A stretch of 64,000 nt of DNA from the UHGV virus genome UHGV-0098755. One strand, given 5' to 3'. Under the pieces are notes generated by a model. It did no database searches, was not told the origin of the DNA, and saw only the letters and a program-made list of their open reading frames with translations. Each line of letters opens with the position of its first letter. Positions within the stretch are counted from its first letter, which is position 1. The position numbers were made by a program, and so were the translations under genes. This DNA is from a virus. Positions 61,801-63,539 of this stretch are shown here, one piece after another.

Positions 61801-62730
61801 ATGTCAGGATATAATTCTCAGAATCCAAAGGAACTCAAAGATGTCATTCTAAGACGTTTAGGGGCTCCAATTATTAATGTTGAGTTAACACCCGATCAAA
61901 TCTACGATTGCATCCAGCGTGCCCTAGAATTATACGGTGAATACCATTTTGATGGACTTAACAAAGGTTTTCATGTTTTTTATATAGGGGATGATGAAGA
62001 AAAGTACAAGACCGGAGTCTTCGATTTAAGAGGTTCTAACGTATTTGCAGTAACCCGCATTTTACGCACAAATATTGGGTCAATAACATCTATGGATGGA
62101 AATGCTACATATCCGTGGTTTACTGACTTTCTTTTAGGAATGGCTGGTATTAATGGCGGAATGGGAACGTCTTGTAATAGATTTTATGGACCAAATGCCT
62201 TTGGAGCTGATTTAGGATATTTTACTCAGCTTACTAGTTATATGGGAATGATGCAAGATATGCTCTCTCCTATTCCAGACTTTTGGTTTAATTCAGCAAA
62301 TGAACAGCTCAAAGTCATGGGAAACTTCCAAAAATATGATTTAATTATTGTAGAAAGCTGGACTAAATCATACATTGATACAAACAAAATGGTTGGAAAT
62401 ACAGTAGGATATGGAACAGTCGGTCCACAAGATAACTGGTCATTATCTGAACGATATAATAACCCAGACAACAATTTAGTAGGTCGTGTTGTTGGTCAAG
62501 ACCCAAATGTTAAGCAAGGTGCTTACAATAATCGTTGGGTGAAAGATTATGCAACAGCTTTAGCTAAAGAATTAAATGGCCAAATTTTAGCACGCCACCA
62601 GGGAATGATGCTTCCGGGCGGTGTTACAATTGATGGGCAGCGCTTAATAGAAGAAGCCCGATTAGAAAAAGAAGCACTGCGCGAAGAATTATACTTGCTC
62701 GATCCTCCAGTGGGAGTGTTAGTTGGATGA
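61801..62730 (+). CDS. 13: neck protein gp13
   Basis: 309 aa. Confidence 0.9.
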
Positions 62731-63539
62731 ATTATACTAAAATTTACGACTCTCTTATAGAAAGATCTCTTAAAAGAGGTCTTAATAAGAAAAAATTAGA
62801 TTATTATACAGAATCACACCATATTGTCCCAAAATCCATGGGAGGAGATGATTCTAGAGAAAACAAGGTTTTACTGACAGCAAGAGAACACTATTTTGCA
62901 CATGAGCTTCTTTTTAAAATACACCGAAATTCTGAAATGGCTTATGCCTTAATAAAATTCTCCAAGGGTACAAAAGAGCAGAGAATTGTAAGTAAAGATT
63001 ACGGATGGATTAAAGAGGAAACATCTAAAATTAGGTCAGAAACCATTAAAAAGTTTTGGGCGAATCTATCACCAAATTTAAAACAGGAACGAATTAAAAA
63101 AGCCGGAAAAGGCATTAAAAAAACTAAATCTTTATGGACAGATGAAAAGAGAAAAGAAGTTAATGCAAATATTCGAAAAGCTTCAGTGAAATATTTGGAA
63201 TCGTTATCAGAAAACGAAATGTTAGAATATAAAGAAAGATGTTCTAAACAGATGAAAGATTTTTGGTCTGAGCTTAAAAGTGACCCCCAAAAATACGAAA
63301 AGTATTTAAATAAACTATCTAAGGGTCTTGCAAAAGTCGAAAAGAGAAATTGCCCGCATTGCGGAATTATATGTGATGTAGGAAATTATGGAAAATACCA
63401 CGGCGATAAATGCAAAGTTATCACGGGTGTATCTCATAGCAGAGAAAAATTAAAATGCCCGCACTGTTCTAAAATCATGGATAAGTCTCACGCTAAAAGA
63501 TACCATTTTGACAATTGCAAATTTAAGAAGGTCGAATAA
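62727..63539 (+). CDS. free-standing HNH homing-endonuclease-like protein with two C-terminal zinc-finger-like repeats
   Basis: 270 aa; HNH motif [25 protein letters not shown]; tandem CPHC-x(12-13)-H-x(3-4)-C modules; ATG overlaps gp13 stop, stop abuts gp14 ATG. Confidence 0.75.

Follow-up and report, generated by a model that had tools for sequence, protein, structure and literature searches.

A likely mobile homing endonuclease gene of the T-even Mob family between neck genes 13 and 14 of a T6-like phage

Why do some T-even phages carry an additional gene between neck genes 13 and 14, where T4 has a single nucleotide? The question is raised by virus genome UHGV-0098755, of which a 64,000-nt stretch (the window, whose coordinates are used throughout) was analyzed here. 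The window comes from a T6-like Tequatrovirus that is identical to no record; its best match is T6, at 96.8% over 24 kb. In it, an open reading frame (ORF) of 270 amino acids (aa) on the + strand, at 62727-63539, begins with an ATG (62727-62729) that overlaps the gene 13 TGA (62728-62730) to give an ATGA, and its TAA (63537-63539) is followed by a single T (63540) and the gene 14 ATG at 63541. In T4 (NC_000866), the last nucleotide of gene 13 is 94553 and the first of gene 14 is 94555, and no ORF separates the two. The location is not that of an intron-encoded gene, as the insert lies between two genes that are separate ORFs in T4 with a 1-nt spacer. Sequence comparisons make it likely that we are dealing with an intact, free-standing homing endonuclease gene (HEG) that belongs to the HNH-type Mob family of T-even phages, is or was until recently active, and occupies the late neck/tail operon as a cassette without a promoter of its own. 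An earlier note, made from the letters of this DNA, had described the ORF, its overlap with the gene 13 stop, the 1-nt distance to gene 14, and the lack of an ORF at this place in T4, and all four descriptions agree with the sequences. It had also assigned the product a canonical HNH motif and two tandem zinc-finger-like modules and read the gene as a mobile homing endonuclease. The motif and both modules were recovered, and the mobile reading is supported by comparative evidence: presence or absence at one exact site, low diversity of the insert, diverged flanks, and orthologs at the same junction. The gene and its parts are as follows.

62727..63539, + strand: free-standing HNH homing endonuclease gene, 270 aa, with a Mob-type nuclease and two I-TevIII-type zinc fingers
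62811..62903, + strand: HNH catalytic motif, aa 29-59, with H31, H32, N46, H55, and H59
62994..63335, + strand: helical linker, about aa 90-203, five long helices predicted in the AlphaFold2 model; no Pfam domain here
63351..63413, + strand: zinc finger 1, CX2CX12HX3C, aa 209-229; aligns with finger 1 of RB3 I-TevIII (aa 211-231)
63456..63518, + strand: zinc finger 2, CX2CX12HX3C, aa 244-264; the family-wide conserved finger

The HEG is not a chance ORF, because PHROG 655 ("homing endonuclease") matches its product over the whole length (1.8e-52) and 413 database homologs were found at an E value of ≤1e-5. Pfam HNH_4 matches aa 25-52 with 25.6 bits, above the gathering cutoff of 22 bits, and the protein has the catalytic His, the Asn, and the distal His that characterize HNH superfamily sequences. 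In an alignment of 66 homologs, H31, H32, G40, N46, H55, and H59 are invariant, so the catalytic residues are not degenerate, and C244, C247, H260, and C264 of finger 2 are invariant as well. Both fingers were located with a regular expression and fit CX2CX12HX3C. An AlphaFold2 model of the protein (mean predicted local distance difference test score of 92.9) has strands at 29-32 and 47-50 and a helix at 52-66 around the motif; the remainder is made up of a long linker of helices and of two small units, the fingers. The modeled linker may track along the DNA between the nuclease and the fingers. Structure-library searches with the model gave weak HNH and tandem zinc-finger matches, a sequence search of the PDB gave marginal matches to the HNH motif alone (E value of 0.08 or worse), and an NCBIfam search gave nothing meaningful.

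The two ends of the protein resemble different T-even nucleases. BLASTP against T4 proteins matched MobB (3.6e-32), MobD (1e-30), MobE (4.6e-23), MobC (3.8e-14), and the MobA remnant (1.8e-6). When the protein was aligned to the Mob proteins, a check that the earlier note had proposed, its N-terminal ~110 aa were 35 to 46% identical to T4 MobB, MobC, MobD, and MobE, with an MNYxKIY start in common; the motif HHI(I/V)P...GG.D..N.V.LTA.EH..AH is likewise common to the HEG product and the T4 Mob family (MobA-E). MobB, MobC, MobD, and MobE differ from it in lacking the two-finger C-terminal module. In T4, the C-terminal ~80 aa find matches in the remnant of I-TevIII, where both fingers align, and in the small ORF nrdB.1, where one does; finger 2 is 58% identical to the finger of NrdB.1. 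RB3 I-TevIII, an intron-encoded protein of 269 aa, resembles the HEG product in its length, N-terminal HNH motif, linker, and two C-terminal CX2CX12-13HX3C fingers (211-231 and 242-263, compared with 209-229 and 244-264). BLASTP aligned the C terminus with residues 193-266 of RB3 I-TevIII at 33% identity (E = 1.5e-6) and gave no significant match between the two proteins outside this domain. I-TevIII is encoded within the nrdB group I intron, whereas the HEG is free-standing, and the His-Asn spacing also differs (H27-N39 versus H32-N46), the N terminus of the HEG product being of the Mob type. The combination of a Mob-type N terminus and an I-TevIII-type C terminus therefore describes the protein as a Mob nuclease joined to an I-TevIII-type DNA-binding module.

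Is this gene peculiar to the window? Megablast with the 2-kb region returned 509 related phage records, 47 of which contain the insert, and TBLASTN found the same 47 records at an aa identity of at least 95%, with the next matches below 60%. The T6 copy (YP_010067306; NC_054907, 89574-90386; 99% aa identity) is labeled "homing endonuclease" in RefSeq and differs in nothing of substance from that of the window, which represents a distinct isolate. Beyond T6, about 45 other Tequatrovirus records, F26, FL12, fPS-2, CrRp10, and pSe_SNUABM_01 among them, carry the gene at 98 to 100% aa identity, in the same position and with the same ATGA overlap and 1-nt spacer before gene 14. The annotation varies between "homing endonuclease," "HNH endonuclease," and "putative mobile endonuclease." The carriers cover at least five species of the International Committee on Taxonomy of Viruses, while T4, T2, RB51, and others lack the HEG and have a 13/14 spacer of 1 nt. 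The earlier note, which was aware of no ORF between genes 13 and 14 in T4, is correct on that point but missed the annotated copies in T6 and other relatives. The HEG is not a discovery, because it is present and annotated in T6 and dozens of other records; it is an already known, ordinary member of the T-even Mob class of HEGs. It matters little as a discovery also in that these are the best-studied class of phage selfish elements and the correct label is already in GenBank. Mildly new are the Mob/I-TevIII hybrid architecture, an orthologous lineage specific to this junction, and a recoded block of 21 bp. T6 has been credited with three mob-like HEGs and one other HNH HEG (Petrov et al. 2010, PMC2993671). 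A literature search yielded no paper that characterizes the activity of the HEG between genes 13 and 14, no element at this junction is mentioned in the 2010 review of T4 mobile elements, and no informative paper was found on T4_ev151 as a documented laboratory acquisition of the HEG.

The history of the insert was assessed by comparing 13 sequences with the HEG (HEG+; 12 fetched loci and the window) with 12 loci without it (HEG−). The comparison of the 13-14 junction in relatives lacking the insert, also suggested by the earlier note, places the insertion at the same exact site in otherwise collinear Tequatrovirus genomes: 810 nt separate the end of gene 13 from the gene 14 ATG in every carrier, and 1 nt does so in the HEG− loci. 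Nucleotide diversity (pi) in the same genomes is 0.009 for the HEG, 0.047 to 0.050 for gene 13, and 0.041 to 0.042 for gene 14, so that the HEG is 5 to 6 times less diverse than its flanks. Synonymous diversity (pS) is 0.033 in the HEG versus 0.21 in the flanks. Divergence between HEG+ and HEG− flanks (dxy) equals the diversity within each group. In T6, the IMG/VR contig L003, ESh24, and ESh36, the 813-nt HEG is 100% identical, while gene 13 of these four genomes differs at 31 to 56 of 909 nt and gene 14 at 20 to 35 of 459 nt, that is, by 3 to 8%. HEG distance and flank distance are uncorrelated (r = −0.08, 66 pairs). The HEG copies are thus far younger than the genes around them. The ratio of nonsynonymous to synonymous diversity (pN/pS) of the HEG is 0.11, which indicates that the protein is under purifying selection. 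Recent mobility is very likely from these comparative data, which do not prove that the nuclease drove it.

The second difference between carriers and noncarriers is found in gene 13 itself. The features flanking the HEG are as follows.

61801..62730, + strand: gene 13 (neck protein gp13, head-tail adaptor), upstream host gene; 309-aa ORF, PHROG 211 "head-tail adaptor Ad2" 2e-43, 97.7% aa identity to T4 gp13
62710..62730, + strand: recoded 21-nt gene 13 tail (GTGGGAGTGTTAGTTGGATGA), different from the HEG-less allele TTTGGAATTTTGGTAGGTTAA
62712..62716, + strand: Shine-Dalgarno-like GGGAG, 10 nt upstream of the HEG ATG; read from the sequence, function putative
63527..63531, + strand: GAAGG, Shine-Dalgarno-like for gene 14, within the HEG 3' end and 9 nt before the ATG; read from the sequence, function putative
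63541..64000, + strand: 5' part of gene 14 (neck protein gp14, head closure), downstream host gene; Pfam T4_neck-protein 3.4e-90, 100% aa identity to T4 gp14 over 153 aa; continues past the window end

Sites at which allele frequencies differ by at least 0.6 between HEG+ and HEG− sequences were sought in gene 13 (151 polymorphic positions in 930 nt) and gene 14 (63 in 459 nt). Only eight sites passed this threshold (window positions 62710, 62712, 62716, 62718, 62721, 62724, 62727, and 62729; gene 13 positions 910, 912, 916, 918, 921, 924, 927, and 929). They change the tail of gene 13 from TTT GGA ATT TTG GTA GGT TAA in HEG− loci to GTG GGA GTG TTA GTT GGA TGA in HEG+ sequences. Seven of the eight differences are completely fixed and the remaining one is nearly so (13 HEG+ versus 12 HEG−). 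No further separating sites appeared when the scan was extended 1,250 nt upstream and 1,900 nt downstream (∼4.9 kb in all), and polymorphisms 22 to 34 nt upstream and 12 nt downstream of the insert segregate freely in both classes. The carrier allele hence differs from the candidate target allele by the 810-nt insertion and, within the 21 nt on the left side of the insertion, by eight fixed or near-fixed substitutions. An FGI motif that is otherwise conserved loses its F and its I through two of these substitutions (F to V and I to V). Two (GGT TAA to GGA TGA) make the HEG ATG, and two others create the GGGAG 10 nt upstream of it, where the T4 allele reads TGGAA.

The recoded tail was sought apart from the HEG. 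No HEG-less record in the phage collection has it joined to gene 14 (best match of 92.4% over a synthetic 102-nt junction), and none of the sampled genera of other T4-like phages has it (closest sequences with 6 to 7 mismatches in 24 nt). Escherichia phage BYEP02 (L094:1563-1716) was considered as a remnant of the HEG and rejected: its match, in two pieces spanning 179 nt, reflects 77 nt at the start of gene 14 that are duplicated in tandem behind a T4-type tail. The duplication, in a 154-kb record with broken neck-gene ORFs, is probably an assembly artifact. The recoded tail appears to be part of the mobile unit, and the block probably marks the target or immunity region of the nuclease.

These data also bear on whether the HEG might instead be a decaying or inactive relic, inherited vertically and patchy through loss by deletion. 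Many T4 HEGs are defective, for example, mobA and I-TevIII, and the ORF of Shigella phage SHFML-26 (L075:2228-3039) has lost 1 nt at nt 391, which breaks the reading frame, and is listed in its record as two hypothetical fragments; this copy reflects either a sequencing error or the beginning of decay. Nevertheless, the ORF is intact in 12 of the 13 copies sampled, the catalytic residues and zinc ligands are invariant, and pN/pS is 0.11. An old vertical insert would not be expected to have a pS six times below that of its flanks or identical copies in diverged backgrounds, and precise loss should leave the recoded tail behind, which is found in no HEG-less genome. We therefore regard a relic as improbable.

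More distant relatives of the HEG product were searched in a database of 5.8 billion proteins. The three closest, P0002, P0003, and P0004 (loci L090, L091, and L089), are 52 to 57% identical over the full length, retain both fingers, and come from more distant T4-like phages, in each of which the gene occupies the same insertion point at the junction of genes 13 and 14. Because all three closest relatives sit there, the lineage is specific to the 13/14 junction. In L089 and L091, unlike in the window, gene 13 has a T4-like tail and is separated from the HEG by 8 nt, with no ATGA overlap. The L090 HEG (L090:1051-1069) ends in ...CKLVG*, followed by T ATG, and so repeats the LVG* T ATG ending of a T4-type gene 13. 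This ending hints that the ancestral insertion entered gene 13 a few codons before its stop, with the HEG terminating in the old gene 13 tail.

Other elements have reached the same place. Unrelated ORFs of ∼195 to 260 aa lie between genes 13 and 14 in other T4-like genera (L031:3427-4062, L038:3500-4084, L067:355-969, and L060:3660-4433). That of L038 is a SegE-like GIY-YIG protein (Pfam, 29.5 bits against a 25-bit cutoff), and those of L031, L067, and L060 have sub-threshold matches to NUMOD3 or the I-TevI DNA-binding domain alone. Because other genera carry unrelated inserts there, the junction seems to be a recurrent landing site for HEGs of different nuclease families.

How would the gene be expressed at this position? 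No exact late promoter TATAAATA was found on the + strand from 55372 to 64000; sites with one mismatch to TATAAATA lie inside the HEG at 63228 and 63305, and scans for sigma-70 promoters and terminators were at chance level. With no exact late promoter in or near it, the HEG looks like a promoterless cassette that is read through from upstream late promoters. Such an arrangement has been described for mobE after nrdA and for other T4 HEGs; like the HEG, mobE is free-standing and promoterless, with a start that overlaps the upstream stop (PMC2988022; PMC2790892). The T4 Mob genes differ in lying among nucleotide-metabolism genes, whereas the HEG is in a late structural operon. Translation of the HEG is probably coupled to that of gene 13 via the ATGA overlap. 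RNA folding revealed no significant hairpin that would sequester the ribosome-binding site at the HEG start (z = −1.19), and control by a hairpin in the style of I-TevI or the Aeh1 mobE is therefore not supported. Expression of gene 14 would be preserved, because the last HEG codons supply the GAAGG 9 nt before its ATG.

From these observations, a homing cycle can be proposed. The HEG would be transcribed by read-through from upstream late promoters; its translation would be weak, coupled to that of gene 13, and aided by the GGGAG in the recoded tail. In a mixed infection, the protein would bind the uninterrupted 13/14 junction of an HEG-less phage (T4/T2-type ...CCATTTGGAATTTTGGTAGGTTAATATGGCT...) and nick or cut it no more than ∼20 bp from the insertion point. 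Repair by recombination with the HEG+ genome would then copy in the HEG together with the 21-nt recoded gene 13 tail. The carrier would be protected by the splitting of the site by the 810-nt insert and by the eight substitutions immediately to the left of the insert. MobE, the characterized member of the Mob family, nicks one strand. I-TevIII requires both fingers for DNA binding and forms dimers through the part of the protein near residues 194-241; the double-strand break that it introduces lies 14/16 bp from its insertion site (Robbins et al., PMC1865063).

The recoded block has three possible and mutually compatible readings: (a) self-protection of the carrier, (b) the translation-initiation region of the HEG, and (c) sequence that hitch-hiked from the original donor. 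By analogy with I-TevIII, reading (a) would put the predicted recognition or cleavage within ∼20 bp of the insertion point. This reading is favored because nothing else separates carriers from targets in ∼4.9 kb; it is not secure, because the L089 and L091 orthologs keep a T4-like tail. A real, though less than even, chance must be given to an account in which the HEG is genuine and its tail is a translation-initiation region (Shine-Dalgarno sequence GGGAG plus ATG), a donor hitch-hiker, or both, with immunity arising from splitting of the junction alone or with the cleavage site elsewhere. In favor of this account, two of the eight changes are needed for the ATG and two others create GGGAG, and in L089 and L091 the T4-like tail is kept and the ATG follows after 8 nt. 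A Shine-Dalgarno sequence does not call for all of the other four changes, among which are the F-to-V and I-to-V replacements at conserved positions. If the target lay at a distance within the ∼4.9 kb, it would be the same in carriers and noncarriers, since there is no other fixed difference, and carriers would be sensitive to their own nuclease. Moreover, the cut of I-TevIII, which has the same finger architecture, falls 14/16 bp from the insertion site, a position that here would lie in the block.

Several points weigh against the proposal of a homing nuclease that cuts beside its own insertion site. The L089 and L091 orthologs, with their T4-like CCATTTGG tail, imply that recoding is not a universal requirement, and the tail has the other explanations just given (it supplies the Shine-Dalgarno sequence and ATG of the HEG, or it came along from a foreign donor). 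Free-standing T4 HEGs often cleave hundreds of base pairs from their insertion sites (PMC2988022). A derived insertion present in ∼9% of a highly recombining population would produce the same low diversity and shuffled flanks without drive; because a young allele without drive would look alike, the population signature is suggestive and not proof. No cleavage, nicking, or inheritance experiment on this gene was found in the literature searched.

A nuclease at this position could also be kept because it benefits the phage. It could then serve as a weapon against coinfecting relatives, whose neck/terminase region it would cut (marker exclusion), a role compatible with homing. HEG-mediated marker exclusion has been documented in crosses of T2 and T4 (PMC2988022), interference between coinfecting phages mediated by HEGs is likewise documented (PMC11620839), and the HEG lies among essential late genes, so that coconversion would carry neck and terminase alleles with it. 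The earlier note had likewise expected the gene to bias inheritance of the flanking neck/tail region in mixed infections. Such a bias is mechanistically reasonable in single crosses, but in natural genomes the linkage to flanking neck alleles has decayed within ∼25 bp, which argues against a visible dragging of the neck/tail region in nature. Flanking alleles are unassociated with the HEG beyond 21 nt, long-range hitch-hiking of neck/tail alleles is thus not visible, and only ∼9% of related genomes carry the gene. We consider retention for phage benefit unlikely.

The gene lies three genes upstream of that for the terminase small subunit, and its product could be imagined as a partner of the terminase (genes 16/17) in packaging, comparable to the HNH proteins of cos-type phages. 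T4, T2, and ∼90% of close relatives package normally without the HEG, and this dispensability effectively refutes such a role. The Mob-family N terminus and the I-TevIII-type DNA-binding domain also speak against it. T4-type phages package by headful and are not known to require an HNH protein for packaging. A function in packaging is scarcely credible.

Returning to the homing nuclease, a more specific version can be offered tentatively. The HEG may represent an uncharacterized Mob/I-TevIII hybrid subclass whose product would, like I-TevIII, act as a dimer and make a double-strand break ∼15 to 20 bp from the insertion point. The recoded tail would serve as both immunity determinant and the gene's own ribosome-binding site, and the junction would be a hotspot for HEGs of multiple families (HNH in some lineages and SegE-like GIY-YIG in others). 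Of modest practical value is that the comparative data narrow the likely target/immunity determinant to the 21-bp block at the end of gene 13. Crosses of T6 with T2 or T4 would be an easy test system for a Mob-family enzyme, very few of which have been characterized.

Further observations concern relatives of the HEG in T4 and other phages. TBLASTN of the entire window (1-64000) with T4 Mob proteins matched the HEG alone, so the window phage lacks mobB, mobC, and mobD; the corresponding stretch of T4 holds all three. In T4, nrdB.1 (83 aa, L070:4717-4968) is directly downstream of a short mobE (141 aa, L070:4992-5417) and encodes a lone CPHC...WHYDKC finger, the one that is 58% identical to finger 2. 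It may be the detached DNA-binding domain of a once longer MobE. MobE of RB3 is 243 aa long, with a different, finger-less C terminus. A different HNH ORF is found downstream of gene 14 in two loci (L055:4198-4860 and L065:3163-3777). It is ∼204 aa long from an MIYTK start (the ORF listed for L055 has 220 aa) and contains a NUMOD3 motif and a single C-terminal CPHC...WHFDNC finger that resembles finger 2 of the HEG product. Finally, a perfect GC hairpin with a GCAA loop (GGGGCC GCAA GGCCCC) occupies window positions 61773-61788, in the 31-nt spacer between wac and gene 13 and just before the gene 13 ribosome-binding site; it is a typical T4 intercistronic stem-loop.

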